Assembly: GCA_963796455.1 (NCBI GenBank)
Contig: CAWCLO010000010.1
Location: forward strand, 224,001-288,000
Direction of reading: 5' to 3'
From: Candidatus Sulfomarinibacteraceae bacterium
Lineage (GTDB): Bacteria; Acidobacteriota; Thermoanaerobaculia; Thermoanaerobaculales; Sulfomarinibacteraceae
Length of the DNA: 64,000 nt
Below, piece after piece: positions 1,872 through 21,576 of this stretch (positions are counted from its first letter, which is position 1; every line of letters begins with the position of its first letter). The notes beneath the pieces are model-generated. The model searched no databases. It was not told the origin of the DNA and saw nothing but the letters and a program-made list of their open reading frames with translations. The translations under genes and the position numbers were made by a program.

Positions 1872-2339
1872 TCATTCCATGGGGGTTGGTGTCGGTGCTC
1901 CCGGGCGGTAGCTCGACGCAAGCTGCAGGGTCACCCGATCCACCCGATCCACCGGGACCGGCGGTCTCTGGGCTCTGGCGATTCGCATGGTCTCACCCTG
2001 GTGCGCATCGACCCGGCCCGCGATCAGCAGTATCTGATCCACTCCGAGCGATTGGTACGCGACCTCCAATTGCACGTCCCCGTGACAGCCCTCAGGCTCG
2101 GCACAGGTCAACAGACAGGCCCAATCGATGTAATCGGGGTGGACGGTGCCGCGGATGCCGATCAGATCGACCGCGAGATCCGGAGAATCGACGGCGACCC
2201 GGTCAACCTCGAAATCCGACGGCTCCGAATTGAATTCCACCGGCGCCGGACCGCAACCGCGAAACGCCAGAACCAGCGCCACGGCGACGATGACCGCAGC
2301 GGCAAAAACCAGCCACAGAACGCGGCCGGTCAGCACCAC
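1872..2339 (-). CDS. Membrane-anchored hypothetical protein, last gene of pilus cassette 1 (paralog of 12329-12793)
   Basis: N-terminal TM segment; shares SPDxAVDL, W-C-x3-C-x4-GCH, IAGR-DA-x-GE-MRI-R-QRPP with the paralog. Confidence 0.75.
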   Translation of the reverse strand: MVLTGRVLWLVFAAAVIVAVALVLAFRGCGPAPVEFNSEPSDFEVDRVAVDSPDLAVDLIGIRGTVHPDYIDWACLLTCAEPEGCHGDVQLEVAYQSLGVDQILLIAGRVDAHQGETMRIARAQRPPVPVDRVDRVTLQLASSYRPGAPTPTPME

Positions 2340-3187
2340 TATTCGATTGGCGTCGGCCGCGCCACAACCTCGGCCCCGCTGACGCCACCGTGTTCGAGCG
2401 GCAAGTTGCTCGGGTGCGGCACGCCACCCGCCTTGGTGTAGTCGGGCTCGCGGCGCGTCTGTTCCTGCATCCAGATGACGCTGGCGCGGACATCAGGTTG
2501 TGTCTTGTTGGTCGGGATCTCGGCTGAGAAGGAGTGCGAGAAGAGCCCCTTTTCGTTGGGCTGCAGCACGCTCGCCACTGAAACCTCGCCCGTCCACGGC
2601 TCAGCGCCGGAGGTGGAGGCTTGAAGTTGTACGCGGACGTTTGTGACAGGATCGGGAAGTCGATTGATGATCTCCCCTTCCACGTTCCAGCTGCCCTCGC
2701 CGGCCGCAGAAACCCGCATATTGTTGAGGACGACGCCGCCCCCTTGCTGGAAACCGTCGGGGACCCCACCGGCTGCGGCCGAACCATCGCCCTCTTCACC
2801 TTCACCGACACCGCTGCCCCGAACATGGCGGACATCGCGGTCGGTGATGGTGAGCTTGCCGGTCTCCTCACCGCCCACATCGGCGGCGTTCTTCAGAGAT
2901 CGACCACCGGTCAGGGAGTCGCCACTCTCCGGCGCCGGTGCCTGAGGGTTGGCTGCAGCAGCATCTGCTGCCGCGGTTGCTTCTGCTGCACGAAGAGCAT
3001 CGAGGTCGACATCGGCTGAGTCATATGCAACCTGTGAGCCGTTCGGCATGGTGATCATGATGTAGGACCCGGTCAGCCGATAGCTCTCGGCGGTGATAAC
3101 CGATCCGTCGCGCATCGGCACGTCTACGGCAGCAACCACACCGGTGATCAAAAACGCTGCACACACGCACAAAATGATTTGCTTCAT
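2339..3187 (-). CDS. Secreted hypothetical protein, probable C-terminal Ig-like (FxLYD-like) domain (paralog of 12796-13614)
   Basis: Signal peptide; RDG..A.S.R.TGSY, ITDRxVRHVRGSGV, GEIxN, LxPxEKxxF and PDVRA shared with the paralog. Confidence 0.75.
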   Translation of the reverse strand: MKQIILCVCAAFLITGVVAAVDVPMRDGSVITAESYRLTGSYIMITMPNGSQVAYDSADVDLDALRAAEATAAADAAAANPQAPAPESGDSLTGGRSLKNAADVGGEETGKLTITDRDVRHVRGSGVGEGEEGDGSAAAGGVPDGFQQGGGVVLNNMRVSAAGEGSWNVEGEIINRLPDPVTNVRVQLQASTSGAEPWTGEVSVASVLQPNEKGLFSHSFSAEIPTNKTQPDVRASVIWMQEQTRREPDYTKAGGVPHPSNLPLEHGGVSGAEVVARPTPIE

Positions 3188-3190
3188 TCC

Positions 3191-6100
3191 TCAGTCCTGT
3201 CGCCAGTTGGTGACGATATGCCCCGCCACATTCGGGAACTCCTCGGTTTCTCCGGGAGTGACGTGGCTGTCGGTGAATGACACATAGGTCGTTCCATCGA
3301 TATTGTATTCCTCACTCCCAGTATAGAAGTCATTGCTCTCGGTGTAATCACCGAGACCACACTGGAACCACAGTTTATAGGTTCGGCCGAGCCCGGATGC
3401 CTTACAGATTAGCGGATCGCCGGAACCGCCGGGGTCCGGGGTCGGGGTGGGGCTGGGACCGGATCCTCCACACTGGTCGGGCACATTGTGGCTCGCCGTT
3501 GCTCCTTCGGTCGGATCAAAGGTGGGGAAGAGGACGTATCCATTGACGACATTGGCGCGGTACATCACCTTTTCGTTGGGTCGCAGGCTGAGATACCAAC
3601 CGTAAAACCCGTCGTTGGGTCGGAGGGCGCTGTCGGTGCAATCGTAGGACCCATCGAGTTGGTCGTAACTCTCTCCCACGAGATCACCTGCATCACGCAG
3701 GACGTCATCGCCGACGTCGAGCAGGAAGAAGAAATGATCCACGTTGCCGACTTCGGTATCGAGATCGGCGCGGTCACCGGAGCCGAGGGCCAGGCCCCAG
3801 GTGTAGTCGGAACCATCAAAGATCGCCGGGACCGTGATGGGACGGAAAAAGAACTCCTGACGATGGGGGAAATCGAGTTTGAAATCAAAAATTGGGGTCA
3901 GCGTACCGGCGTCACCACCGGTGGCCAGCGGATCTTTGGGCCCCGGGAAACTGAGCCGGTGGACTCCACCATTCGAATCTGCAAAGTAGATTCGATCGTG
4001 GAAACCATCGATGTCGGAATCCAGCGCTGTCGGGCCCGCCGGAACCGCGTAACCGATGTTGGCGGTATAGACGACGGCACCGGTTTCGATATCGACGCCG
4101 TAGATGTGCCGCCCCGTAAGATCGTTCTGTGTCTCGTCGTAACCACCGCCAAAGAAGGCGATGAAGACGTCGTCGGGTTCTTCGGGCGTCGCCCCGTTGT
4201 ACACGGCGATCCGTGCGATGGCAGGTCGGGACCAGGTCCACCCGAGATCCCAGAACTGCGGGCAATCGGCCACAGGGGTACCGATCGGACACTGGGAATC
4301 CCGGTCCGTTTCGTCTTTGAATTCCCAGAGAACCTTCGGATATTCGCTGTCACAACCGGCAGTGCTGCCGTTCAGACAACCGGGGAAAACGGGCGAACCG
4401 GAAGAGATCGACGGAATGTAGGCCGGCGCCGAGCCCAGGGGATCGGGCTGAGTCACATCCAAAGCGGTCATCCCGCGACCGCCCCGACGCATGGTCGCGA
4501 TGGCGATGGTCCGCCACTCACGATCGCCGTCACCATCGTGGTCGATGTAGACATCACTTGATTCGATGAACCCATCCACCATGTATCTCGGTTCCTCTTG
4601 ATAGGTCAGGGCCTTGAGCCGGTACATGACCGCGTCGGGAACAAATGCAAAGAGTTCACTGCCATCGCCGAGATCGTGTGCGAGGTCGTAGGTTTCGTCC
4701 GAGGTCACCCGGTCGCGATCCCAGATGCCGGCATCAAAGGCGTGCAGCATCCCGTCATTGGCTCCGGCAAAGACCACTCTGCGACGCTTGGCGTGCTTGT
4801 CCATGAACAATGGGTAGTCATGGGCCCCGACCTCGGTCGAGCCGCCGTAACCATAGTCAAAGAAGAACATCGAACGATTGGGCGGATTCACCACCACCGG
4901 TTGTGAGTGGTAGATGTCGCCCAGAACCGATGTGCCGACCGGGCGCGGATTGGGCCGCGGGTTCGGCGTCACGGCCGTATCATCGTCCATCCAGATATCG
5001 CGGACAAAATTCACAACCTCCTGGACCTCGAGGCTGCCCTCGGTCCCGGTGAATTTCAACCGCGCCAACAGATCGGTCTGCAGATCCGTACTGGTTGCGA
5101 CATCGGCAAGATTGTAGCGTTCGAGATCGCCGGAGTAATCGCTGGCCATGAAAACGTAGCGCTTGGGATTGCCTTCGGTATGGGCCGCAATCTGTGCCTC
5201 GAGGCGCTGGTTGGAGTTCCAGGCGTTGCCGCTCACCTGCTCGATGATGATCTGACTGACATCGATCTCGCAGTCGGGTGTGCTCGGCAGAGTCGGCTGG
5301 CTGGCGTCGAACTTGAAGCCATAGAGGTTGCCTCGCCACAGCGAGTTGCTTGGCTGCGGTTGGAAGAAGGGATAAACCGAAAGAAAGTGCTGTTGTTCGG
5401 CCGGAGCGCCTTCCTGCGGTGGCGGCGGCGATACCTTGAACGGGATGAAAGACCGGTTGTCCGTCTGCAGCGAGTTGATGACTTCGTGCAGGGCAGTCGC
5501 GAGTTCGGAGGCGTTCCGCGCCCCAAAATACTGCCCGCCCGTGGTATCCGAGATACAGGTCAACTGCGGCGGCGCATCGGCCACCGTCTCCGAGAAACCG
5601 ATGGTAAAGACCTGCATCGGCTCGATACCATTTTCCGGAGCCGCGAACTTCGACGCCGACTGTCCTGGATCGCACGAGAACTCACCAGGCCCGGCGCAAC
5701 TTTCCGCACCGTCGGTGATCAATACGACGTACCACTTCCGACAGTCGACAAGGGGATCGTCGGCCCAGTCTCCGTTGGTCACCTGCTCGATATACCAATC
5801 GTATGCGTCGAGCAAGGAGTTGTTGATGGGCGTCGCGCCGTCGGCGACCATCGGAACCGGATTATAGGTCGGGGACGCGGGGTCGTTGTCGAAGTCGTCC
5901 TGCCACGAGAAACCGCCGGCTCCGTCGCTGAGATAGTCGACCGCCGAGGACATGGGCTCGAGGAAGGAGCGGATCGAGGCAAAGTCCGTGCCGTCGCCCG
6001 GCACCGGCAGATCCGTCAGCAGATTCCAGCCGTTGCAGTAATTGGTTGTCGTCGTGTTGTTGGGTGACGTGACCGCGGGCGGCGAGGTGTTGACATCGAT

Positions 6101-7189
6101 CTTGCGCCCCGCCACCTGGCGACCGGCCGAGTAGTCCACCAACCCGCCTTCGTAGAGAAGTTTGAAGGGTATTTCCTCAGAATCCACTTCCGTCCAGGCG
6201 CTCCACGGGTCGCAGACCAGACCGCAAGTGTCTCCCCAGGCTCCGACTCTGAAGTTGTCGAAGAGGGTCGTATTTTGACCGGCCCCGGAAGTGCTGTAGC
6301 GCCCACCCTGATAAAAGCCGGCGGCGCCCGGGGTCAGAGGGGCCGCTGATTCCGTCCACTCCATGAGAGTGCACCAGCATCTCTCGGGATCGGTGCCTCC
6401 CTGGCTCGAACAACAACCAAAGAACTGCAGATCGATGCCCTGGTGTTGCAGACGTTGGATCTGCACCCGCAGGTTGCTGCAATACCACTCGAGACGCAGA
6501 CGGTAGGCGTGATACGGGATGAGATACTGGGTATAGGGGTCACTGGTCGGAAGACTGATGCTGCCGCTGCCGAGGACCGACCACGAACCTTCAGCAACAA
6601 AACGGAGCAGGACCCAGGACGCCCGGTATCCTGCAGCGGCTTGGACTGCGGTGGGGAAGTTTCTGACACCAAAGAGATAACCTTGGTCGGGATTGTTGTC
6701 GCCATCGGGGTCCTGCATGCCCCACACCAAGCCGGGTTTTCCGCCTTGGGAGATTCCGATATCGAGCTCCATTCGGATGTTCGTCCAATCGGCCGGAACA
6801 TAACCGGGATTCGTGGGCTGTGACTGCTTCGCGATGAGATATCCCCACCAGCCGCTCCTGACCAGGGTTTCCTCGATGCAACGGGAACCCCAGACTCCAC
6901 CGCCAACCTCGGGGGGAATGAGGGGGAGGGTCGTGCGGTACGTGAAGTCCATCGAACCACCGTTGACCAGCCACTCATCCCAGATCGCCCCGGTCCCATC
7001 GAGAGGATCGTCCGGTGGCCGCGGCGAGGTTGTGGTCTCGAAGTCGTCATAAAAAACCAGCGCCGGCGCCGCGGCGGGGAAGACCCCACCCCAGGCGACA
7101 GGAGCGCTTGCCATCACGAGCAGAACACCGCACAACAGTGCGCGGGCTCCGGATGGGAGCGTTGTTTCGGATCGCAGTTGACTATTCAT
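3191..7189 (-). CDS. PilY1-like adhesin, C-terminal part (B1): signal peptide, lectin-like domain, C-half of vWA, PilY1 beta-propeller
   Basis: LGDIYHSQPVVV, FAGANDGMLHAFD, ELFAFVP, YMVDG, LGWTWSRPAI, Ca-loop DSDIDGFHD, GWYLSL, terminal NWRQ. vWA C-half GATPI..LITDG..VFTIGF. Own RBS GGAGG. Confidence 0.88.
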   Translation of the reverse strand: MNSQLRSETTLPSGARALLCGVLLVMASAPVAWGGVFPAAAPALVFYDDFETTTSPRPPDDPLDGTGAIWDEWLVNGGSMDFTYRTTLPLIPPEVGGGVWGSRCIEETLVRSGWWGYLIAKQSQPTNPGYVPADWTNIRMELDIGISQGGKPGLVWGMQDPDGDNNPDQGYLFGVRNFPTAVQAAAGYRASWVLLRFVAEGSWSVLGSGSISLPTSDPYTQYLIPYHAYRLRLEWYCSNLRVQIQRLQHQGIDLQFFGCCSSQGGTDPERCWCTLMEWTESAAPLTPGAAGFYQGGRYSTSGAGQNTTLFDNFRVGAWGDTCGLVCDPWSAWTEVDSEEIPFKLLYEGGLVDYSAGRQVAGRKIDVNTSPPAVTSPNNTTTTNYCNGWNLLTDLPVPGDGTDFASIRSFLEPMSSAVDYLSDGAGGFSWQDDFDNDPASPTYNPVPMVADGATPINNSLLDAYDWYIEQVTNGDWADDPLVDCRKWYVVLITDGAESCAGPGEFSCDPGQSASKFAAPENGIEPMQVFTIGFSETVADAPPQLTCISDTTGGQYFGARNASELATALHEVINSLQTDNRSFIPFKVSPPPPQEGAPAEQQHFLSVYPFFQPQPSNSLWRGNLYGFKFDASQPTLPSTPDCEIDVSQIIIEQVSGNAWNSNQRLEAQIAAHTEGNPKRYVFMASDYSGDLERYNLADVATSTDLQTDLLARLKFTGTEGSLEVQEVVNFVRDIWMDDDTAVTPNPRPNPRPVGTSVLGDIYHSQPVVVNPPNRSMFFFDYGYGGSTEVGAHDYPLFMDKHAKRRRVVFAGANDGMLHAFDAGIWDRDRVTSDETYDLAHDLGDGSELFAFVPDAVMYRLKALTYQEEPRYMVDGFIESSDVYIDHDGDGDREWRTIAIATMRRGGRGMTALDVTQPDPLGSAPAYIPSISSGSPVFPGCLNGSTAGCDSEYPKVLWEFKDETDRDSQCPIGTPVADCPQFWDLGWTWSRPAIARIAVYNGATPEEPDDVFIAFFGGGYDETQNDLTGRHIYGVDIETGAVVYTANIGYAVPAGPTALDSDIDGFHDRIYFADSNGGVHRLSFPGPKDPLATGGDAGTLTPIFDFKLDFPHRQEFFFRPITVPAIFDGSDYTWGLALGSGDRADLDTEVGNVDHFFFLLDVGDDVLRDAGDLVGESYDQLDGSYDCTDSALRPNDGFYGWYLSLRPNEKVMYRANVVNGYVLFPTFDPTEGATASHNVPDQCGGSGPSPTPTPDPGGSGDPLICKASGLGRTYKLWFQCGLGDYTESNDFYTGSEEYNIDGTTYVSFTDSHVTPGETEEFPNVAGHIVTNWRQD

Positions 7190-7207
7190 GGCTGCCTCCT
7201 GCCCCCA

Positions 7208-9397
7208 TCACTCGATCTCGGTCGGTGTCGGCGGCGGCACGGTCGGTGTCCGCGTCGGCGTCGGCGGCGGTGTGTTGGTCCGGGTCGCAGTGGCTGCGAC
7301 GGTCGGCGTCAGCGTCCGGGTCGGTGTCGACACGGCTGTGGTCGGCGTCAGCGTCCGGGTTGGCGTCGCCACGGCTGTGGTCGGCGTCAGTGTCCGGGTC
7401 GGGGTCGACACGGCCGTGGTCGGCGTCAATGTCCGGGTCGGTGTCGACGCCGCTGTGGTCGGGGTCTGAGTCCGGGTCGAGGTGCCCCACGGAGTCGGTG
7501 TCAGCGTCCGCGTCGGGGTCGACCAAGGCGTCAGCGTCTGCGTCGGGGTCCGCGTCGAGGTGCCCCACGGAGTCGGCGTCAGCGTCCGGGTCGGGGTCGA
7601 CCACGGCGTCAAGGTCATTGTCGGGGTCCGCGTCCGCGTCGCCGTGCCAAACACCGTCGGGGTCCTGGTCGGCGTCGGTGTGATCCACCACGGAGTCTGG
7701 GTCGGGCTCGGCGTAATGGAAGCCGAGGTGGGTGTTCGCGTCCGGGTCGGGGTCGCAGACAAGCTGCCGTAGTCGTCACAGATGTCGTTGCAGCTGACAC
7801 CCATGGTCAGCACGTCGAAGTCGAGGCAGAGCTCGTGATAGGCCGTGTGTGTGAAGTTGTTGTCGATGTCCGCATACCAGTTCCGGCTCGAGGTCGCCGG
7901 AATGCGGGCCAGTGACGGCACGGTCGTCGTCTGGATGCTCGGGGTGTTGTAGTCGGTTGAGGGCGATCCATCACCCCAGTAGTGGGTGTTGGTGGAGTGC
8001 GAGTAACCACCCGAGAAAACGCCGAACCAGTCCAAACGGTAACTCGGCGAGAGCGGCTGCCAATCGACCACCGTGCGGGTGATCTCGATCTGGAACGAGG
8101 TCTGGTTGTTGATGACCGCGCGCAGGATCCCGCTCTGGGGTGAGGCCATGGTGACGGTGATATCGCTGCAGTCGATCATCGGTGTCGGCGTCGGAGTGAT
8201 CGTCCGGGTCGGCGTCTGGGTACTGGTGGCGGTTCCAGTCGGAGTGAAGGTCGGCACAACCGGAACCGAGCAGGTTCGGCTCTGCTGCTCCTCCACCGCT
8301 TCGATATAGAGCATCCAGTCGTTGGACTCGTCGCCGTCGAAATCCGGGTCATCGGTTGAAGCATCCAGGTCATAATTGTCGACGCCCGGATCGGCCACCA
8401 GTTCGTTACCGACCAGAGAGCCTGCACCGTTGACAGCAAGTGGGTGGTTTGCGTTACCCGAAGTATTGACCGCCGGAATCCGGAGCTGCACCCGCCGTCG
8501 ATACTGGGTGACATCGCTTCCGGAAACTGTTTCCCACTCCGCACTGCACCCGTCATCCGGGTTGCTCGCGTCGGGAGCCCTGTTGGGCACACAATCCGGG
8601 AAACCGTTGGTGGTCGGATCGCCGTAGTACCACTCGTCAGGGATCATCTTCCCGAGACCATCGCGCTCGCCGGAGGCGTAAAATGGAAAGACGTTGTCTT
8701 TGCAGATGGTCTCGTCGTCACTCGGGTCGTCGGTTTCTTTGCTGTCGACAAAACAGTTGCCGAAGTAAACCGGCATCAAATCATAGGGGAGGCGCGTCGT
8801 GGAGTCGCCCGGGACGTCCTCGAGCCCGGTGTCCCAACCGGTGACCGGGCCAAAACGATCAGTGACCACCGAAGCGTCGGGGTCGAAGTACGGGCTGTAC
8901 CCGATAAGCTCGTTTTTCAATATGTCAGCTGGATTGTCGACCAGGGCACCGGCAAAGGTCTCGTTGTAGCCGATGCGATAGGCATAGTTGGCCTCGATGA
9001 GGCTGAATCGATCGGCCGCGCGGGACTCATATATCCAATGCTTCTGGGGGATCGGGTTGGATCCATCGGTGGGTTGGGCTTGAGCGTAGCCCGCGAGCGC
9101 ATAGTTGGCGTCAGAAACTTCTTCGAGGAAATCGGCGAGCACCGTCTTGGCGATACCCATCCGCGAGTAGGGATCGTCGCCACCACCCGGCACCATTCCG
9201 TAACCCACACGGGCGCCCTCGACCTTGCCCGGCGCTTCCGGGCTACCCACCATCGACTTGGAAGTGTCGAGGATGAATATCAGATTGGGTGGAGCGGCCG
9301 TCTCGCGAAGGAAATCCCGATCTTCGGCGTCGAGAGCTCCGGCCAGACCGACCGCCAGGGCCAGTGCGAGCCACGTTGTCCATCGTCTCTGTCTCAT
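7208..9397 (-). CDS. PilY1 N-terminal-like secreted protein (A1): vWA N-half with DxSxS, variable domain, Thr/Pro-rich tail
   Basis: Signal peptide MRQRRW...LDA, then [14 protein letters not shown] and [21 protein letters not shown]; about 180 aa Thr/Pro repeat C-terminus. Start chosen at the ATG after GAGGGGG. Confidence 0.8.
7215..7760 (-). repeat. Coding tandem repeats ([13 protein letters not shown] 13-mers; [16 protein letters not shown] units)
   Basis: Roughly 39-nt units at 7300-7460 and a near-duplicated block of about 78 nt at 7475-7610. Confidence 0.85.
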
Positions 9398-9417
9398 GAC
9401 AGCCCCCTCGGCGCGCA

Positions 9418-9948
9418 TCAGTAACACAGCTGAACCGGCGTGAATTGCTCCTCCAGGAATGGGAAGGAGGTCACGTCCACCTCGACCGTCGCACGGCTCA
9501 CGCCCGCGAGGCCGCCGATGGTCCTCTGGGCGTCACTGCGCATGTGAAAGTGACGTGTTTGGTACTCGGGAAACGAGGACGGAACCCCGCCTGCAAAAAC
9601 CGGCGTCACCGGTTGGGTTTCGCAGAAATCGCTGACTGTGACCGTGAACTGGCCTTTGAGAAGTCCCTGAATATTTGGATCGTCTTCGAGAATGAATGTG
9701 CCGGGAGCACCAACGGCGCCGAGTTGGATCATCTCGATCTGCATCATCGCCCCCGCGTCGGCTGCGTACATCGCCTTGGCCACCCATCGATCCGTGCCCG
9801 AAGCCTGCAGACCAAGAGAGGTCTGCAACAGGAGCCCCATCCCGAGAAAGACCAGCACCAGGGACACCAGGAGGGCCATGATCAGAGCTGCACCTTTCTC
9901 GCCGGAATCGGCTCGAGCCGGGCACTCAGGAGTCACTCGGTGCTTCAT
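9418..9948 (-). CDS. PilX-like minor pilin (cassette 1)
   Basis: [19 protein letters not shown] prepilin leader lacking Glu5, plus AMYAADAG, both typical of PilX. Start re-called at MKHRV. Confidence 0.85.
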
Positions 9949-9958
9949 CGCGCCTCCA

Positions 9959-11044
9959 TCAGAAAAGAAAATTGCGGAGCGCGGCCGCAACCTCGATGCG
10001 CCGCCACTTGGCGCCGCGGTCATAATCATCGATGTCCGCATCCTCGATCTGGAAAGTTGATTCCGGTTCGTTCCACCCTGAAACCTGCCAGGGGGTCCGT
10101 CCGAGCACCGTGATCCGGATACCGATGTTGCGGCTGTCCACAGCGTCAGCTGCCGTCGGGGACTGCTCCCACTCGTTTTGATCCACCAACCCGTTGTTGT
10201 TGGCGTCGATCCCGAGGGCGATCTGAAGACCGCCGATATTCGTCGCCACCGGTAGATCGGAGGCGCCAAATCTGTCGGCACGCATCCGTCTCAGCTCGAG
10301 GGCCGGGTTGACGTAATAAACATAGGACTCGAAAACGCCGATACGGTAGACGTCGAAGTTGGGCGGCATCGCGGCACCCGAGGGGTTGAGACCCCAGAAC
10401 CACGCGGCCGTCGAACCCTGAGCTTTGATGGGGATGGTCAGCGTCCGGTTGGGATTGACCCCCGCCAACACCGATCCGGAAGCGATCTGGCCGACCACGT
10501 ACCGCGACTGGTCGAGGTTGCCCATCATGACCACTCCGCGGCCCTCGAGGCCGGCAACATCCACGTCCCCGATCAGATTCATGATGGTATTGCCGCCATC
10601 GATCGATGTTGTCTCACGGACCACGACCTGCAGCGAGCCGGTCGAAAAATCCGATCTGTCGACAAAAAATGGAGGGATTTCGAAAAAGCCCCGCATCATC
10701 AGCACGTCGGAGCCCTCTTTGACTGCCACCGAAGTGCCGAAGGGGGTGGTAAAAGAACCCGACACATCGTTGGCGACACCACCCGCGATCCAGGTCGGCG
10801 TCCCTGCCACATTGACGGCAAGCAACATCGTGGCACCGCCCATCATGCGCGCTGTGCGCATCATGTGATAGGCGGCAAAACGCACGTTTTCCTGGGTGTC
10901 GGCAAGTGCGGTTTCGATTCGCGACACCTTGGCCGACGAGTCGAGGAGGTTGAGGATTCCAATCATGAAGATTGCAAAGACGGCCATTGCCACCATGACC
11001 TCAACCAGGGTATAACCCGCACGACCGCGTAAACCGATTTTCAT
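9959..11044 (-). CDS. PilW-like minor pilin (cassette 1)
   Basis: AG|YTLVEVMVAM N-methylation motif; QENVRFA; VATNIGGLQIALGIDANNNG; IRITVLGRT; LRN C-terminus. Confidence 0.87.
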   Translation of the reverse strand: MKIGLRGRAGYTLVEVMVAMAVFAIFMIGILNLLDSSAKVSRIETALADTQENVRFAAYHMMRTARMMGGATMLLAVNVAGTPTWIAGGVANDVSGSFTTPFGTSVAVKEGSDVLMMRGFFEIPPFFVDRSDFSTGSLQVVVRETTSIDGGNTIMNLIGDVDVAGLEGRGVVMMGNLDQSRYVVGQIASGSVLAGVNPNRTLTIPIKAQGSTAAWFWGLNPSGAAMPPNFDVYRIGVFESYVYYVNPALELRRMRADRFGASDLPVATNIGGLQIALGIDANNNGLVDQNEWEQSPTAADAVDSRNIGIRITVLGRTPWQVSGWNEPESTFQIEDADIDDYDRGAKWRRIEVAAALRNFLF

Positions 11045-11048
11045 GACC

Positions 11049-11507
11049 TTATCCCGGAACCTTGAGGCTGGTCACTGTAAGCACTCGGCGGCCTTCGAGA
11101 ATCTGATTGGTCGAAGCGACGGTCATCGAAATCCGCTTGAGGTTCGCGTCAGCAGCCGTCGCGGCTTCCGTCCATGCCGCGGAGGCCTCGGTCCAGTTCT
11201 GCACCCGAAAGTCTTCGACCGTGTAGTTGATCGTGAAATTCGGACTCTGAGGATCCAATGTTGCCGGGGTGCCGGCAGTGTCGACCAAGGCGGCATCATC
11301 AAATGCCAGCGCCTGCAATCCTTCGAGAGCAAATCGAGCCTCGGCCGCCAACAGGGCATAATCGTGTCCCGAGGCGTTGGTCACCATCGCGTGCGAAAAC
11401 AGACCGGCAATGCCCAGCGCGACAAAGCTCAATATCATCAAGGCCACCAGGACCTCAACGAGGGTAAAGCCGTCATGCCCACCACGGTTCTGATCAAAAC
11501 CGCCCAT
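11049..11507 (-). CDS. PilV-like minor pilin
   Basis: DG|FTLVEVLVALMILSFVALGI; small; LKRISMTV near C-terminus; lies between fimT-like and pilW-like genes. Confidence 0.82.
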   Translation of the reverse strand: MGGFDQNRGGHDGFTLVEVLVALMILSFVALGIAGLFSHAMVTNASGHDYALLAAEARFALEGLQALAFDDAALVDTAGTPATLDPQSPNFTINYTVEDFRVQNWTEASAAWTEAATAADANLKRISMTVASTNQILEGRRVLTVTSLKVPG

Positions 11508-12148
11508 CAGTACCTCCAGTGCCTCAGCTCGGGAACCCAACCGTTGGCTTCTTCCGCATCCCACATCCGTTCTTCCACGGTTCCCGAGGCACGAACCTGA
11601 ATCATGATTCGGTTGTTGTATCGATCCGACAGCACGAATGCGCCGATGCCCGCACCCACATCGTTGGCGTGGACGATGGCGCTGCCGTCGGGAAGAAAGA
11701 CCACGCCCCGGGTCGTCCCCGACATCGGATGCAGCGACCAGTTCGTCTCGGTCGGTTCCGGTCCGATAAAAGTATTTGGTCCCATGGGCCAGCGGCCGAC
11801 CACCTCATCGCCCGGATCCGGCGCCTCATCAGAGGTCTCATCGACCCAGGCCACCACCGTATGATTGGGTTGCACCGAGTCTTCAGGCGTCAGTAAGACC
11901 GCCACGCGGCGGCTGTTCTTGATCGCGTTGATTCGCGCCACCGCCAGCGCCTGGCGGGTCATCTTGACCTCGTCCATGAGATCCGCCCGCACCATGGCTC
12001 GGCGCAGATTCGGAATGGCGATGCCGACGATCAAACCGATGATGGCCAACACCACGAGCAGCTCGATCAGAGTGTAACCGCGCTGCGAATCTTCGCGGCG
12101 GTAGTCGGCAAACGATTCGGGCCCTTGACACTTCATCAATTCAAGCAT
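11507..12148 (-). CDS. FimT/FimU (GspH-like) minor pilin
   Basis: RG|YTLIELLVVLAIIGLIVGIAIP; ARINAIKNSRRV; VVFLPDG; SD GGGGAGG. Confidence 0.85.
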   Translation of the reverse strand: MLELMKCQGPESFADYRREDSQRGYTLIELLVVLAIIGLIVGIAIPNLRRAMVRADLMDEVKMTRQALAVARINAIKNSRRVAVLLTPEDSVQPNHTVVAWVDETSDEAPDPGDEVVGRWPMGPNTFIGPEPTETNWSLHPMSGTTRGVVFLPDGSAIVHANDVGAGIGAFVLSDRYNNRIMIQVRASGTVEERMWDAEEANGWVPELRHWRY

Positions 12149-12328: not shown

Positions 12329-12793
12329 CTACATCATCGGCGTCGGCATCATTTCGACCGGCACGATCTCTCCTTCGACCACCACGGTCAACCGATCGAT
12401 CCGGCCGATCTCGATGGGGGGTCGCTGAACCCTGCCGATCCGCATCCTTTCGCCATCATCAGCGTCAAACCGGCCCGCAATATTGATTTTTCGTTCTTCC
12501 CTACCTGAACGGTAGAGGATTTCCAGGCGCACATCCACGTGGCAGCCGTCCTTCTCACGACAGACGAAAAAGCAGGACCACTCGGTGTACTCAGGTTTGA
12601 CGAGGGCCTTGAGATCAACGAGGTCGACCGCGATATCGGGAGACTCCAGGGAGATTCCATCCACACTGAAGCCATCCCCACCCGGAGAAGCAGACGACCC
12701 GGAAGGGCCCCATGCCCGCCAAGCGACCAATGCGATCGCCACCACTGCGACCGAAGCCAAGGCAACAATCCAGGTTGTTCGATTCGACATCAT
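12329..12793 (-). CDS. Membrane-anchored hypothetical protein, last gene of cassette 2 (paralog of 1872-2339)
   Basis: TM segment; WSCFFVCREKDGCH; IAGRFDADDGERMRIGRVQRPP. Confidence 0.75.
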   Translation of the reverse strand: MMSNRTTWIVALASVAVVAIALVAWRAWGPSGSSASPGGDGFSVDGISLESPDIAVDLVDLKALVKPEYTEWSCFFVCREKDGCHVDVRLEILYRSGREERKINIAGRFDADDGERMRIGRVQRPPIEIGRIDRLTVVVEGEIVPVEMMPTPMM

Positions 12794-12795
12794 TC

Positions 12796-13618: not shown

Positions 13619-16600
13619 TTACTCTTGTCGCCAGTTGGTAACGCTGTGCTCCCTGATCAACGGGAATTCCTCGGTCTCTCCGGGACCATCAGTGGTCCCC
13701 GTGAAAGTGACGTAGGTATCGCCGCCGATCGAGTAGTCCTCACTGCCGGTAATAATATCATTGTGTTCGGTGTACTCGCCGATCCCGCACTCGTACCACA
13801 ATTTGTAGGTTCGACCGATGCCCGTGGCGCGACACACGACGTCGACCTCGGTTGTCGAACCGGTTCCGGAACCGCACTGGTTCGGAGCATTCGTCGCGGT
13901 GTCGGTGGACGGGTCAAAAGTCGGGAAGAGCACGTAGCCGTCGATCACAGTGGAGTCGAAAACGACTTTCTCCGTGTCGCGCAAGGTGAGATACCAACCA
14001 TAGTCACCGCCCGTGGGATTCAGCACACTCCCGTCCGGACAAACAAAATCAAGGCTGTCGTCGAGATCAGCATCGCTGAAAACCAGGCTGCTGTAGTCCA
14101 TCTCGACCAGGTCCGCCTCCCCGCGTGTGGTCGTGTCACCTACATCCATCACAAAGAAGAAATGGTCGATTCCGGAATCATCGCGGGCCAGATCGGCGCG
14201 GTCACCCGATCCCATCGCCAGGGCCCACGTGTAACCGGTGCCGTCAAAGACCACTGGGACCAGGGTCGGCTTGGTGAAGAACTCCTGCCGGTCAACAAAG
14301 TCCGTCTGGAAGTTGAAGATATCGGTCAAGGTTCCAGCGGTCGCACCGGTCTGGCCCACATCCGTGGGCGAAAGATACTGGAGCCTGAAAATGCGGCCAT
14401 GGGAGTCGCCGAAATAGATCCGATCGTGGAAGCCGTCGATATCCGAGTCGAGGGCCGTCACTCCACCGGGGACATCGACACCGATCGCCTCCTTGACCAG
14501 GACGGTCCCGGTCTCGAGATCCACGCCGTAGAAGAAGGTCCCCGTGGCATCGGAGTCGGTCTCGTCCCAACCGCCACCGAAGAAGGCCACGAAGACATCG
14601 TCGGGATCGCTGGGATCGGAGGAGTTGTACACGGCGATCCGCGCGATGGCCGGCTTCGACCAGGTCCACCCGAGATCCCACCACGGCGCACAATCATCCC
14701 CTGAGAGACCACCGAGACAATTGGTGTCTTGATCCAACTCGTCTTTGAATTCCCACATCAGACGCGGCCACTCGCCGTCACAACCCGAAATGGATCCTAC
14801 CCGGCAACCGGCAAACTCTGAAACCTCGGGAAGATAATCCGGTGAGGCACCGATCGGGTCGGGTTGGGTGATATCGAAAGCCGCCATGCCCCGGCCGCCG
14901 CGCCGCATGGTCGTGATGGCAACCGTCCGCCACTCGCGGTCGCCGTCGCCATCCGAGTCGATGAAAGCATCGGACTTGGTGATCGGACCGTCCACCATGT
15001 ACTGGGGCTCGATGTGGTCGAGGCCCCCACCCGAGGTCAGATCATAGAGCCGGTGCATGATCGCCTGGGGCACCCAGGCTGCCAGCTCAGTTCCGGTCCC
15101 GAGATCGTGCACCAGGTGATAGTCCTCTGTGGTATCGACACGATCGCGGTCCCAGACACCACCATCGAAGAAGTGGAGCATGCCATCGTTGCCGCCCACC
15201 AGGATCATGCGCCGCCGTTTGGCCTGTTTCGTCATGAAGTCAACATAGCTGCTGGCGCCATAACCATAGTCGTAATAATAGGTTGGTGTATTTGGCGGAT
15301 TCACGATCAAGGGTTGGGAATGATAGAACTCGCCATAGACCGGATAACCCGTCGGTCGCGGCTCGGCCGGCGGCCCGGCGTTCCCCGCGGTGAAGTCGTT
15401 GTCCATATAGATATTCCGGACAAAGTTGGCGATCTGCTGCGACAGCACATCGTCTTGGGCTCCAGGCCGATTGAGATGATCCCAGAACTCGGAACGAAGG
15501 GTCGCGTTGTCCGGCAGCGTCGCCAGATCGTGGCGCGCCCATTCACCGGTGCTGTCCGAGCCCATATAGACGAATCGTTTCGGGTTGCCCTCGGTGTGGG
15601 CGGCGAGCTGTTCGGCCAGTCTTTCGCTTGCGTCCCACACCAGTTCGTCGGTGTCGAGTTCACAGTCACCGGTGGTGGGCAGGGTCGGCTGGGCTTCGTT
15701 CAAAGCAAAGCCGTAGAGCGAACCGCCCCACAAGGTAAAGCCCTCTTGCGGTTGGAAGAGCGGGAAGATCGCCAGCGAATCGAGCGAGGGCTCGCCGCCG
15801 GTCGAGGGCGGCGGTGGGGCGACCTTGAAGGGAACGAAGGACCGCGTGCCGGCCTCCAGGCGATAGAAGACCTGGTACAAGGCCTCGGAGAGCTGGCCGG
15901 CGTCTTCGGCGGTCAGGAAGAGGCCACCGGTCTGTTCGGCAATACAACTCAAGGGTGAGTCTTCGGCGACCGATTCCGAAAAACCGATGGTATAGACCGG
16001 CAGTGGCGGCACTCCCGGGATCCCCGGATCGGCGAACTTGGAGGCCGCCTCGCCCGGATCGCACACCTTGTCCGGATCCGGTTTGAAACCATTGGCCGGG
16101 CAATCGCCGACACCTGCCGGGGCGCAGGCCTCGAACTCGCATCCTTCTTCGCCATCGGTGATCAGCACCACCCACCAGTTGCGACAGTCCTCGTAGGAGT
16201 CGGTGGCCCAGGCCCCGGTGGTCTTCTGATCCACATACCAGTCGAAGGCCTCGAGCAACGAGCCGTTGATGGGCGTGGTGCCGTCCGCGATCATCGGCAC
16301 CGGGTCGTAATCCGGGCTCGCCGGGTCGTTGTCAAAGCTGTCGACCCACGAAAAACCGGAGTTCGATTCGTACTGAACCGCCGATGTCATGGGTTCGAGG
16401 AAGGTCCGAATGGCGCTCAAATTGGTCGAATCGGTGGGCCCGGGAAGGTCCTCGAGCAGATTCCATCCGTTGCAATAGGGGTTCGAGTCGATCGAACCGT
16501 TGTAGGAGCTGTCGAAGACGGGCGCTTCGGTGTTGACATCGATCTTGCCGAGTTCGGGCGCCGGTTGGATGTGGCGGCCGGCCGAGTAGTCGAACAGCGC

Positions 16601-17838
16601 GCCCTCGTAGAGATACTTGAAGGGAACGATATCGGTACGCTCGTGGGCCCATCCCTGCCACGGGTCGCAGACCAGACTGCCACCTGGGCCCAGATCTGAG
16701 ATTCTGAGGTTGTCGTGCTTGTATTCCCAGCTGGGGCTGAGGAAGGTCCACAGCTGGCTGCGATAAAAGCCGACCATCCCCGGGGTCGTGATGGGAGAGG
16801 GGTCGATCGAGTCGACCGGGCCCTGGAGGATTTCACACCAACAGTCGTCGATGTTGGCGTCGGTGCAGATCCCGGTCGGCGCGGCGGCCGAGGCGCAACC
16901 GTAGTAGAGGGTGTCGACACCCGGAGTATCGCCCCATGGCATCAGGTACTGAACCCGGAAGCTCGGGTACATCCAATCGAGGCGGAAACGAAACGCTCGA
17001 CCCGTCCTCAGGCATTGCAGTGAGGTCGTCGACAGGGTGGCCGCGGTCTCGGTCCCCGGCATCTTCGCGACCACGGGACCATTGGCGAGCTCGACCCAGT
17101 CCTGCTGGCCGGAGATGTTGCCGAGTCGATCCCAGCCCTTGACCCGTGCAAGGTGCCAGGTGGATTGGTAGGCCGGGAGCACGCAGTTGGCGCTGCTGCC
17201 AGTGAAGCCGTTCGAACTGCCGGGGGTGATGTAGAAGATGTAGCCGTCGGCCGGTTTGCGGTCGGCCGGACCGAAGTTGGTATCGACGGTCGACGAGAGA
17301 TTCCAGACCAACCCGGGCAAACCGAGCTGATGCCAGGCGATGTCGACCTCGTAGCGGATATTGGTCCACTGGGCGGGGTCGTAGTTCCCCGGATAGGGGT
17401 TCTCCGCGCCGTCATCAGGATCGCTCGGCGGGATCGAGTCGCGGATCACGTGGAAAACGCTGTTGGTCGGCGAACCGTAGAGGGCGAGTGCGTGCTGCTG
17501 GCCCCACATGAAATAGGGGTCGTTGTCAGCCCACGAGGGCTTGATGGCATAGACAAAGAACTTGGCCTTCCAGGACGAGCCGCTCTCCCACTGTTGCCAC
17601 TGCCACCAATTCTGGCGTCGGAGTCCCAGGGGATGCTCTGCGAGGTACTGTAGCTCTCGAAGTCCTCGAAGAAGACCTCGGTCGCGGCGGCGGGAAAGAC
17701 CTGGGCCTCGACCGCCGGCGCTAAGATCAGCGCCGCCAGTGCCAGGGCACCAAGCGCCAATGAGGCAAAACGACCGGTTTTTATTCGCCACCCGACGGGG
17801 GCCGATGTATTTGCGATGAGTCGTGGATAGTAATCCAT
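13619..17838 (-). CDS. PilY1-like adhesin, C-terminal part (B2); one frameshift near 17614
   Basis: ORF 17446-17838 supplies the signal peptide and QVFPAAATEVFFEDFE (matches B1 VFPAAAPALVFYDDFE). ORF 13619-17791 supplies the rest (GTTPI, LITDG, GGNDGMLHFFD, DSDIDGFHD, NWRQE). Adding one C in GACGCC[C]AGAAT joins the frames. Confidence 0.83.
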
Positions 17839-17856: not shown

Positions 17857-19874
17857 TCAGGTGGTCGGCGTCGACGTCTTGGTAGCCGTCGATGTCGGGG
17901 TCGGCGGACGCGGCGTGGCGGTCGCCACCGGCGTCGGAGTCGAAGTGGCCAGGGGCACCGGGGTATTTGTCGGACCCGGGTCGGGGTGTTGGTTACACTC
18001 CCGTTGTCGGCGTCCTGGTCGCTGTTGACGCAGAAGTCGGCCACGGCGTGTTGGTCGCCGGGACGGATGTGTTCGTCGGCGTCCTGGTCGGCGTCGGCGT
18101 GCCGTAGCTGCCCTCGTAGGTCACGGCACAGACGTCGTCGCAGTACAGATCGCTCCCATCACCCGCACCGCCGGCGATCTTGAAATCGAAGCACACCGTG
18201 TAGATGCCGTCCCAGATGATATAGGGCGCGCTGTCCCTGAGATAGGCCCACCAATGGGTGGTGACCCCTGCGCCGATATTTTCCGTACCCGCGTATCCCC
18301 CGGTGGCCGGGAGGGTCGTCAGTTCAACCGGGCGCACATATCTGCCCGGTATAGGGCACAACGCTGTAGCTGCCGGTGCTTTCGTCCCAGATCTCTTCCG
18401 AGGTGGAACCACATTAGTTGGTGGCACCGTCGGTGCAGATCCGCATCCAATCGTGGTAGGCCCACTTGCGCATGTTCTGGCCCCAGTCAAAATAGAGGCG
18501 TTCGATGGTGGCGGTCTGTGGGTGGCCGTTGTAGAGCGTGGCCCCCATTTGACCGGCATAGCCCGAACTCGAGCCCTTCCGCATGTTGGTGACCGAGACC
18601 CGGCAGGTCGGGGTCTGGGTCGGGGTCGGGGTGAAGGTCTCCGTCGGCGTCGGGGTGATCGTGAAGGTCGGGGTCCAGGTCGGTAGAGTCCCGGCCGGCA
18701 CACACACCTGCGTATCGCGCTCCTCGACCGAATTGACATAAAGCATCCAGTCGGAGGTGTCGTCACCGTCGTAGTCACCTTCATTGACGCTGTCGAGGTC
18801 GTAGTCCTCGGGTTGGCCGGTCTCCGCCACAGCCTCGTTGCCGACTGGGCTCCCGCCGCTGTCGACTGCAAGAAAGTGGTTGGGGTTCCCGCCGACCGTG
18901 GTTGGGATCTCGAGCCGAATCCGCCTTTTGTACTTGATGAGATTCGGGCCGACCATCTCTTCCCACGCATTCTCGCAGGCGCCGGCGACCGGGCTGCCGG
19001 TGCCGTCGTCCCAGATCGGATCGTTGGGGTCGCAGCCGGGATAGTCCTCATCGGCCGGGTCGAGTTGGCCGTAATACCACTCCTCGGGGATGATCTGCCC
19101 GGTTCCGCCATCGCGGATTCCGGAGTCGTAGAAGGGAAAGACATTGTCCTTGCAAAGGGTCACGTCGTCGGTATCGTCTGCCGGAGTCTGCATGTTGTCT
19201 ACAAAGCAGTTACCGAAGTAGATCGGCATCAAATCGTACGGCGGGGGCACATCGACCTGGGTCACCGGCGGTCCAGGGTCGGTGTAGGTGTAGTCGATCC
19301 AACCCGTGTCGTAGGCGTTCACCGGACCAAAGCGGTCGGTGGTCGCGGTCGTGGCGGGGTCGAAGTAGAGCTTGTAACCGATCAAGCGGTTTTTGATGAT
19401 ATCCGCCGGAACATCGAGAATGATGCCCGAGTGGTTTTCCGAATAACCCATCCGGTAGGCGTAGGTGGCCTCGATCATGTGGAAACGATCCTGGGCGCGC
19501 GCCTCGTAGACCCAGTGTTTCTGCGGAATCGGGTTCGAGGCATCGGTGGGTTGGGCCTGGGCATATCCGGCCAGCGCGAAGTTCGCCTGGCCGACCGTGT
19601 CCAGGAAATCATCCAGAACCTTTTTGGCGATACCCATCCTCGAGTAAGGATCGTCGCCCGCGCCGGGCACCATGGCGGCGTTGACCTTGGCGCCGTCAAG
19701 GATTCCGGGCACCTCGGGGCTGGCCACCATCGAACTCGATGAATCGAGGATGAAAATGATATTCGGAGGCGCCGCCACCTCGCGCAAAAAATCGCGATCA
19801 TCGGCGAGGGCAACCCCGCACAGACCGACAGCGGCCACCAGCACCAACCATCTCGTGAGTCGACTATGTCTCAT
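17857..19874 (-). pseudogene. PilY1 N-terminal-like protein A2 (vWA N-half, variable domain, Thr/Pro tail); C-terminal third disrupted (real lesions or assembly errors)
   Basis: PPNIIFILDSSSSM and [14 protein letters not shown] match A1. In-frame TAA at 18414-18416, frameshift near 18345, and two more near 17995 and 17972; the Thr/Pro frame ends at TGA 17857-17859. Confidence 0.72.
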
Positions 19875-19896: not shown

Positions 19897-20421
19897 TCAG
19901 TAACACTCCCCTACGGCTTCGAACGCCTCTTCGTGAAATGGGCTGGCAACCACATCGGCCTGTACCGCCGCACGGGTCGTGCCCGCGAGACCGCCGATGC
20001 TTCGGGTCGCTTCGCTGCGAAGATAAAAATGGCGTTCGAGATAACCTTCTTGAAAACCCACCATCGGTTGCGCGGGTTCGGTTTCGCAAAACTGGTCCAC
20101 GGTGACGCTGAACTGTCCTTTGAGGAGACCCGGCAGATTGCCGTCATCCTCCAGAATGAAGGTCCCGGGTGCGCCCACAACCCCCATTTGAATCATTTCA
20201 ATCTGCATCATCGCACCGGCATCGGCGGCATAGAGCGCCTTGGTCACCCAACGATCGGTTCCGGAGGCCTGGAGCCCGAGCGAGGTCTGCAACAGCAGAC
20301 CCATGCCCAGAAAGACCAGCACCAGCGAGACCAGAAGCGCCATGATCAAGGCCGCACCGCGCTCGGATTCCCGATTTGCGTGGCGGGTCAGCGGCTGGGG
20401 AATGTTTTGGTTCAGCATCAT
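19897..20421 (-). CDS. PilX-like minor pilin (cassette 2)
   Basis: [38 protein letters not shown], identical to the cassette 1 PilX over this segment. Confidence 0.87.
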   Translation of the reverse strand: MMLNQNIPQPLTRHANRESERGAALIMALLVSLVLVFLGMGLLLQTSLGLQASGTDRWVTKALYAADAGAMMQIEMIQMGVVGAPGTFILEDDGNLPGLLKGQFSVTVDQFCETEPAQPMVGFQEGYLERHFYLRSEATRSIGGLAGTTRAAVQADVVASPFHEEAFEAVGECY

Positions 20422-20427
20422 GCCCCC

Positions 20428-21576
20428 TTAGATCATGAAGTTCCGGAGAGTGGCCCTGAGCTGGATGCGACGCCATTTGGCGGAGCGATCCACATCACTG
20501 GCTTCCATGTCCTCGATATTTTCGAAAGTTTCGGCCGGTTCCTGCCACTCGGGAACCGGAAATGGCGTGCGGCCCAGAACGGTGATCCGCATCCCGATCA
20601 CCTGGTCGCCGGTGAGATCGCCGGGACCGGTCGGGGCGTTTTCCCACTCGCCGGCCTCGACCACACCGTTGCCGTTCGTATCGACCCCGAGCGCGATCTG
20701 CAGGCTGCCGATGTTGACCGCCACCGGCTCCGGACCGCTGGAAGAATCAGAAGTCCGAAAACGCATCAGGGTGTTGTCGTTGCGGACATAAAAAGTGTAG
20801 GACTCGAGGATTCCGACCCGGTAGACCCTGAAGGTCGGGGGGTAGGACGCCAGTGCAGAATTCATCTCCGGCCAGAAGGTTCCGTCGCCGGCCTGGTGTT
20901 GAAGCACCAACTGCTGGTCGGGGGAGCTTCCCGAAAGGATCGAACCGGAGGCTATCTCACCGACACAGTAGAGACCCTCACCCATGAAGATGATTCCCCG
21001 ACCGGCAAGACCGCTGACCGTTAGCGCATTGAAATTGTTGACCGCAGTTCCGGCAGGGTTTTTCTGGTTGATATCGAAGGTCCCGGAGCCACTGGCGTTG
21101 TATCCATTGGCATCGACAAAAAAGGGAGCCACCTCGAAGAAACCCCGAAGCGTGATCACATCACTACCCTCGGCCACCTGGACGTTCGGGACATAGCCCG
21201 GGATAGTGACCGAACCGCTTTGGTTCGAGGCAAGCTGGCCACTGACCCAATAGTCGGTCCCGCCGTTTCGGGTGGCAAATGGCATGTCGCCGCCGCCGAC
21301 CATCCGCGCGGTGCGCATGATGTGATATGCCGAAAAACGGACATTCTCCTGGGTATCGGAGAGGGCCTTTTCGAGCTCGGAAACCTTGGTCGAGGTATCG
21401 AGGAGGTTGAGGATTCCAACCATGAAGATCACAAAGACCACCGTGGCGACCAGCATCTCGATGAGCGTGTAACCCGCGCTGGACCGGGATCCTGCGCGAA
21501 AGACACGCACAGCGATCGCCCGCTCGCATCGCCGCTCGGTGTGTTCTGAATCACAAAGTTGACCTGGATGGTTCAT
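20428..21576 (-). CDS. PilW-like minor pilin (cassette 2)
   Basis: AG|YTLIEMLVAT; DTQENVRFSAYHIMRTARM; LQIALGVDTNGNG; paralog of 9959-11044. Start uncertain. Confidence 0.87.
   Translation of the reverse strand: MNHPGQLCDSEHTERRCERAIAVRVFRAGSRSSAGYTLIEMLVATVVFVIFMVGILNLLDTSTKVSELEKALSDTQENVRFSAYHIMRTARMVGGGDMPFATRNGGTDYWVSGQLASNQSGSVTIPGYVPNVQVAEGSDVITLRGFFEVAPFFVDANGYNASGSGTFDINQKNPAGTAVNNFNALTVSGLAGRGIIFMGEGLYCVGEIASGSILSGSSPDQQLVLQHQAGDGTFWPEMNSALASYPPTFRVYRVGILESYTFYVRNDNTLMRFRTSDSSSGPEPVAVNIGSLQIALGVDTNGNGVVEAGEWENAPTGPGDLTGDQVIGMRITVLGRTPFPVPEWQEPAETFENIEDMEASDVDRSAKWRRIQLRATLRNFMI

Follow-up and report, generated by a model that had tools for sequence, protein, structure and literature searches.

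PilY1 is thought to sense surfaces and to bear load through one chain with an N-terminal von Willebrand factor A (vWA) domain. Here we describe a locus of a Candidatus Sulfomarinibacteraceae bacterium, from a family of sediment bacteria, in which two PilY1 cassettes each divide this domain between two adjacent genes, A and B (A1 and B1 in cassette 1, A2 and B2 in cassette 2). The locus lies within a window of 64,000 nucleotides, which is the whole stretch of DNA analysed (positions 224,001 to 288,000 of contig CAWCLO010000010.1, assembly GCA_963796455.1). Our reading, to which we assign a probability of roughly 0.8, is that A and B form a two-chain vWA-PilY1 that arose by one ancestral fission, the two chains folding into a single vWA domain that is likely held by a disulfide.

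The closest described proteins are PilY1 of Pseudomonas aeruginosa and PilY1.3 of Myxococcus xanthus which, according to the accessible text of PMC8806160 and PMC13190605, are likewise encoded in a minor-pilin operon and are Cys-rich, with an N-terminal vWA domain carrying the MIDAS (metal ion-dependent adhesion site) ligands DxSxS..T..D and with a C-terminal PF05567 region. The accessible part of PMC8806160 deems intermolecular disulfides unlikely for P. aeruginosa PilY1, and that of PMC13190605 mentions one PilY1 in two open reading frames (ORFs), which separate the propeller from DUF4114, and regards this case as an annotation error. Docking of the C-terminal peptide of PilY1/PilC on PilX is reported in the text available from PMC12918778. 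A type IV pilus subunit made of two polypeptides from adjacent genes is known from Geobacter sulfurreducens, whose PilA-N and PilA-C are presented in the accessible text of PMC10710030 as a possible gene fission. Closer to the present locus, single-chain PilY1s of other Thermoanaerobaculia (G033, G037, G054, G060, G025, G030 and G035) share the same operon and the same vWA domain with its large insert.

A vWA domain split between two genes

Translation of the minus strand gives DTSKS in A1, GATP and ITDG in B1, DSSSS in A2, and GTTP and ITDG in B2, exactly where a first-pass annotation of the window had placed the six motifs (Table 1). That annotation had also described A1 as ending in a Thr/Pro tail and a stop codon, and B1 as having its own ribosome-binding site, a signal peptide and the propeller; the tail, the stop and a GGAGG ahead of B1 are all present, B1 starts with a putative, signal-like segment, and the PF05567 propeller scores over cut-off in both B1 (E 1.3e-13) and B2 (E 3.5e-13). 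A1 and A2 are without any Pfam or NCBIfam match. As judged from its sequence, A alone is not a PilY1, as it has no propeller; B qualifies as one through its propeller and its operon, and A and B together would act as a vWA-PilY1 does. A1 and A2 are 57% identical over the core, and B1 and B2 48%.

Cassettes were counted among the fetched loci in which both cores are intact on one contig; broken or cut cores were left out, and a split cassette was counted if its two cores lay within 4.5 kb of each other. On this basis there are 44 distinct cassettes, of which 43 share one break site, located between the same two cysteines, and one, in genome G034, is a single ORF. The A and B genes are adjacent in all 43 split cassettes, with about 2 kb of coding DNA between the cores at the split. 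The junction was parsed in 37 of them, the other six having a lesion between the cores. B starts with a hydrophobic, signal-like segment in 37 of 37 parsed junctions, and the A end is Thr/Pro-rich in 35, the tail always being there where A is intact. A-type matches occur in at least 50 of 77 genomes of the family and in at least 14 of 24 genera, and the B region was matched in 37 of 61 relatives' genomes; the related loci belong mostly to Candidatus Sulfomarinibacteraceae or Thermoanaerobaculia (Acidobacteriota). Protein searches yielded 82 A-type and 64 B-type sequences. DxSxS lies near the start of none of the B-type proteins found, and the two downstream MIDAS motifs occur together in none of the A-type proteins found. 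The one-chain arrangement of vWA-type PilY1 is thus not seen here: a stop codon, a ribosome-binding site and a second signal peptide stand inside the domain in every counted cassette other than that of G034. Longer fused forms were not found, by a search that also missed the known fused protein P0099, and atlas searches with this system returned only unnamed or minority-labelled clusters.

The split is real and conserved, and is no artefact. It would be vanishingly unlikely for it to reflect sequencing or assembly errors or a decaying gene: there are indels in cassette 2 and frameshifts in several relatives, but this explanation is refuted by comparison, because the split, its ribosome-binding site, its signal peptide and its 2 kb of DNA recur across many assemblies. 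The first-pass annotation had argued that cassette 2 is split alike and that the break is no one-off frameshift, and this holds; what it missed is that cassette 2 carries lesions of its own, namely an in-frame stop and three frameshifts. It also overlooked the two cysteines flanking the break, the lectin-fold domain of B and the probable re-fusion described below. Both A2 frameshifts lie beyond the TAA at 18414-18416. The indels at 17613/17623, 17977-8, 18002 and 18345 are absent from independent short-read contigs of near-identical DNA (single contigs, depth 2-4), so the three frameshifts are probably assembly or consensus errors. At the position of the A2 in-frame TAA, the homologue P0082 has a Tyr. 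Not far from these lesions, rpoB, rpoC and EF-G are full length in the same assembly. For cassette 1, one 381-nucleotide contig from an RNA library covers part of A1 (8890-9270), which does not show transcription, and among the run contigs no sequencing run was shown to bridge the A1/B1 junction, nor did any run contain half of the words of the query.

It is highly improbable that read-through of the stop, frameshifting or protein splicing yields A and B as one chain. In 18 of the 37 parsed junctions, cassette 1 included, the two genes are in frame, as such a route would allow, but B is out of frame in the other 19, and the stop codon of A varies (TAG in 17, TGA in 16 and TAA in 4). In addition, a read-through product would have the signal-like hydrophobic segment of B in its interior, neither A nor B matched an intein family, and the region at the B N-terminus models as a lectin fold.

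The metal site, the predicted complex and the cysteines at the break

The five ligands of the DxSxS..T..D site are present and conserved, on two chains. In aligned A cores the D is kept in 76 of 76, the first S in 76 of 76 and the second S in 75 of 76; in aligned B cores the T is kept in 59 of 59 and the D in 58 of 59. Both exceptions are the fused G034 copy.

The complex of the two cores (A1 residues 25-378 and B1 residues 323-582, no metal included) was modelled together with three controls, using a mark that is reached by 116 of 157 solved complexes and by 2 of 215 mismatched pairs. A1 and B1 scored 0.90, and the best control scored 0.00. At least 91% of contacts (472-490 contacts) are common to the runs, and the predicted local distance difference test score (pLDDT) of each partner is at least 86, dropping to 53-64 for A and 55 for B with unrelated partners. 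An interface, which the first-pass annotation had anticipated, is thus predicted: the first strand of A pairs with the WYVVLIT strand of B, A core residues 14-19 pairing with B core residues 164-169, which we take to be strands 1 and 4 of the vWA fold. All five ligand regions lie within this interface. Neither half appears to be a complete vWA by itself, since the full MIDAS is in neither and the pLDDT of each falls without the other. A Rossmann-type vWA fold is found for A and B together, from the strand pairing in the complex model and from the vWA match of a single-chain relative. In that match, a wide structural search with the G034 model aligned vWA chains over residues 11-602, spanning both parts (best Z 11.1, root-mean-square deviation 3.3, 151 aligned). 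Pfam VWA scores over cut-off in three distant single chains and has no match in the A half, the B half or G034. A PDB sequence search gave nothing for the A core and two weak vWA-like matches for the B core. When single-chain, A-core and B-core rows were aligned together they misaligned, and this alignment was discarded. The complex model supports, as a prediction, the earlier proposal that A and B form a heterodimer completing the vWA fold and its metal site in trans; heterodimer formation and metal binding are both predicted properties.

That A and B are instead separate proteins, whose half-vWAs fold alone or with other partners and keep the MIDAS for other reasons, seems improbable to us. 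Each chain does have its own signal peptide and extra domains, and their binding is a prediction. Yet five ligands are conserved in halves that are unable to complete the site alone, the model confidence of each half falls without the other, the genes are adjacent in every split cassette (within the 4.5 kb selection), and the main groups of the A tree correspond to those of the B tree.

The break lies in the loop between two cysteines, one of which ends the A core (Cys376 in A1) while the other starts the B core (Cys326 in B1). In G034 the end of the A core is joined to the start of the B core by 11 residues between the two cysteines. Distant single-chain PilY1s have a strand-Cys-loop-Cys arrangement at the site in four of seven cases and lack both cysteines in three of seven. 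The Cys376 column is Cys in 76 of 76 aligned cores, and the Cys326 column in 57 of 59, the other two being shifted by an insertion. Among the 82 A proteins the Cys376 site is Cys in 69, Ala in 11 and apparently frameshifted in 2; among the 64 B proteins the Cys326 site is Cys in 48 and Asn in 8, and 8 are fragments that stop short of it. The Ala-type A and the Asn-type B proteins form matching clades in the A and B trees. In the complex model, A core residues 339/340 touch B core residue 20 and residue 346 touches residue 12, an antiparallel register that brings the cysteines close. That the cysteines flank the break, and that one clade has lost them together, points to an interchain disulfide. 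We regard it as rather likely that Cys376 of A and Cys326 of B form such a bond, derived from a former intrachain hairpin bond. Two DsbA-like proteins are encoded in the genome.

Other cysteines of B are lost in pairs (237/322, 506/545 and 967/976), whereas Cys326 is lost singly within B. Two other partners for Cys326 were rejected: Cys237 because it co-varies with Cys322, and Cys385 because it is kept when Cys326 is lost, the eight Asn-type B proteins retaining C385, C483, C498 and C640. The genome encodes many Cys-rich secreted proteins.

Several points weigh against the two-chain reading and its disulfide. The reading rests on sequence and models, and the cassettes are interrelated, so that the counts are not independent. 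The two products of a split gene can pass the complex test through their likeness to solved vWA folds; the model is therefore support for binding and not a demonstration of it. For the N-terminal half of G034 the AlphaFold2 model is weak (pLDDT 38.8), and a Foldseek search with it returned nothing at E<=0.001. The Cys376-Cys326 pair is not among the 25 named contacts of the complex model, both residues lying in the interface with the neighbouring register 2-4 residues off. The loss of both cysteines is one evolutionary event, and the clade concerned keeps the split, so that the bond is dispensable. Two of its Ala-A/Asn-B pairs are linked by the equal size of their source contigs alone, a criterion that pairs a control correctly, and no contig with both genes of this clade was fetched in the metagenome scan. 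Finally, the DsbB and VKOR families were not found in the genome, which is 90.5% complete.

Origin of the split and domains at the new ends

One-ORF relatives, which the first-pass annotation would have counted against the split, do exist in G034 and in distant genera; yet the remaining 43 cassettes are split, and these relatives show A and B to be the collinear halves of a single chain, the split not thereby being an error. A clade of single-chain PilY1s (L058, L059 and L060, from G035, G025 and G030) has a degenerate MIDAS and lacks both hairpin cysteines.

Trees were quick searches, those of the B region including nine or eight distant single chains. In the B-region trees the split forms and G034 form one clade (Shimodaira-Hasegawa-like approximate likelihood ratio test, SH-aLRT, 100), apart from the distant single chains. 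Within it, G034 is sister to the split cassette L136 with an SH-aLRT of 99 in two B trees, and likewise in the A-core tree; both of its halves are closest to L136 (50% and 45%). Nested in this way among split forms, G034 is a probable re-fusion. A single fission and a single re-fusion make up the simplest history; the re-fusion is probable and rests on one genome and these quick trees.

Alternatively, the single ORF of G034 may be the ancestral state, with fission having occurred more than once and no re-fusion. A constraint uniting all split forms costs 23 log units and is of borderline significance in the approximately unbiased (AU) test (p-AU 0.044), and G034 has a long branch and an odd composition and is known from one contig of one fragmented genome. 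We nevertheless find this history rather unlikely: the placement beside L136 recurs independently in the A tree, and, had fission been repeated, each event would have had to give the same break together with the same lectin domain.

The N-terminal domain of B is modelled as a ConA-like beta-sandwich (pLDDT 88.3). It belongs to no Pfam family, and Foldseek gave 335 matches at E<=0.001 (best E 1.4e-7), led by galactocerebrosidase, L-type lectins and CBM66, at 8-14% identity; on this modelled fold, sugar binding is a putative function. On the side of A, a module homologous to the A1 passenger stands at the C-terminal end of two other secreted proteins of the genome, which suggests that the passenger is a mobile C-terminal module. 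Secreted proteins with the A1 passenger module or its neighbourhood and a Thr/Pro tail are encoded at G000:C4:1179934-1181094 and C4:633851-635518. In other cassettes the passenger slot holds PA14 domains (four of the relatives scanned) or, in G027, nothing. The split may plausibly have arisen when mobile modules were inserted along with a stop codon and a new signal peptide.

In the mechanism that we propose, genes A and B, both with a likely signal peptide, would derive from an ancestral single-chain vWA-PilY1 gene by one split within Sulfomarinibacteraceae. The two chains would be exported separately by Sec and fold together in the periplasm, the last core strand of A pairing with the first strand of B and re-forming the hairpin, as predicted by the model. 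Of the ligands of the metal site, A would supply three and B two, and the Cys376-Cys326 disulfide would clip the pair. The C-terminal peptide of B would anchor the pair on PilX or the minor pilins, so that A would reach the tip only via B, and the ends at the hairpin tip would display the lectin-fold domain (B) and the variable passengers with the Thr/Pro tail (A), giving a modular pilus-tip adhesin. A fuller version of this picture stands at slightly better than even odds in our judgement: a naturally split vWA, whose MIDAS exists only on assembly of two separately secreted chains, is locked by an ancestral hairpin disulfide turned interchain; the break opens two slots in which mobile binding domains can be newly displayed; where a genome has two cassettes, their A and B chains could be mixed; and one lineage has reversed the split.

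The locus and its relation to known systems

Prepilin-motif genes lie upstream of both cassettes. Cassette 2 has its own pilW- and pilX-like genes and no pilV or fimU of its own; the pilX-like genes are presumed to be such from their position and N-terminal motif. No PilY1 propeller other than those of B1 and B2 was found in the genome. Its matches over cut-off to PilM and, six in number, to the PilT ATPase family fit a type IVa pilus machine. The first of the two genes after B1 is kept behind split and single-chain PilY1 genes alike.

Table 1. Positions of the described features. Coordinates are those of the window, except for the G034 copy.
Feature	Position	Strand	Remarks
Gene A1	7208..9397	minus	729 aa; ATG at 9397, TGA stop at 7208-7210; signal peptide, vWA N-half with insert, passenger domain, Thr/Pro tail
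A1 signal peptide, residues 1-24	9326..9397	minus	putative, read from sequence
A1 conserved core, residues 25-378	8264..9325	minus	vWA strand 1 with the helix and strand after it; the insert that follows contains Cys and ends in one strand of the split hairpin
A1 MIDAS DxSxS (DTSKS)	9254..9268	minus	translation
A1 Cys376, last core residue	8270..8272	minus	proposed interchain disulfide partner
A1 passenger domain, about residues 405-545	7763..8185	minus	matches no named family
A1 Thr/Pro-rich tail	7211..7762	minus	
Spacer between A1 stop and B1 start	7190..7207	minus	18 nt, GGAGG ribosome-binding site
Gene B1	3191..7189	minus	1332 aa; signal peptide, lectin-fold domain, vWA C-half, PilY1 propeller, C-terminal peptide
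B1 signal peptide, residues 1-34	7088..7189	minus	putative, from sequence and hydropathy
B1 N-terminal ConA-like (lectin/CBM66-like) beta-sandwich	6218..7087	minus	structure model
B1 Cys326, first core residue	6212..6214	minus	proposed partner of A1 Cys376
B1 vWA C-half, residues 325-582	5444..6217	minus	
B1 MIDAS Thr (GATP)	5828..5839	minus	translation
B1 MIDAS Asp (ITDG)	5708..5719	minus	translation
B1 PilY1 beta-propeller region	3230..5443	minus	PF05567, E 1.3e-13
B1 C-terminal peptide	3194..3229	minus	likely strand docking in PilX, by analogy (PMC12918778)
Two unnamed genes 3' of B1	1872..3187	minus	paralogues at 12329-13614 behind B2
pilX-like gene, cassette 1	9418..9948	minus	position; no family match
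pilW-like minor pilin, cassette 1	9959..11044	minus	N_methyl, weak PilW
pilV-like minor pilin, cassette 1	11049..11564	minus	
fimU/GspH-like minor pilin, cassette 1	11507..12148	minus	N_methyl, GspH
Gene A2	17857..19874	minus	DSSSS 19731-19745; core Cys 18702-18704; in-frame TAA 18414-18416 and two frameshifts in assembly
Gene B2	13619..17838	minus	core Cys 16667-16669; GTTP 16271-16282; ITDG 16151-16162; frameshift near 17600 in assembly
pilX-like and pilW-like genes, cassette 2	19897..21576	minus	
G034 single-ORF PilY1	L055 10255-14697		only copy with degenerate MIDAS, two ligands changed

At 21784-24204 on the minus strand, directly upstream of the cassettes, lies a gene for a PMT_2 / TIGR03663 (Agl23-like) membrane glycosyltransferase fused to NHL repeats, which is also present in G027 and could be a candidate for glycosylating the Thr/Pro tails. 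A similar short Pro-Thr-Pro motif ends A1 (7211-7231) and the genes behind B (2342-2360, 1875-1895, 12332-12350 and 12799-12815, all minus strand). In a genome-wide scan of ATG-started ORFs, this motif was found at C-terminal ends only in this locus, with four matches, and it is possibly a locus-specific signal. The minus strand from about 31000 to 63300 holds an ordinary nusG-rplK-rplA-rplJ-rpoB-rpoC-fusA-tuf-ribosomal protein-secY-rpoA region.

A vWA domain and metal site divided, clade-wide, between two exported proteins is unexpected. The two chains allow tests of which half of the vWA does what and of whether force crosses the chain boundary. The locus also offers a clear case of gene fission inside a domain, which displays the break point and the ancestral state as well as a compensatory loss of cysteines and a probable reversal. 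Annotation as PilY1 or vWA misses the A genes, and PilY1 cases in two ORFs are liable to be dismissed as errors. If the two-chain reading is true, A and B would provide a ready-made two-component covalent assembly module. In the literature searched, which excluded closed journals and supplements, we found no description of a split PilY1 or of a split vWA/MIDAS.

Compared with the single-chain PilY1s of other Thermoanaerobaculia, which have one ORF, one signal peptide and neither a lectin domain nor a Thr/Pro tail at the break site, the present cassettes differ at precisely this point. The same is true relative to the vWA-PilY1s of P. aeruginosa and M. xanthus: as far as the available text of their descriptions goes, the vWA is in one chain there, whereas here the MIDAS is on two genes, with the lectin-fold domain, the passengers and the Thr/Pro tail at the break. 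By analogy with the PilY1/PilC-PilX docking described in the accessible part of PMC12918778, the short conserved peptide that ends B could dock alike; that docking joins the adhesin to a minor pilin, and the strand exchange proposed here would be a second one, inside the vWA domain of the adhesin. The nearest precedent is PilA-N/PilA-C of Geobacter. In that system, as the accessible text of PMC10710030 presents it, a major pilin is divided between its helix and its globular domain, whereas here a tip adhesin is cut inside one domain, through the metal site.

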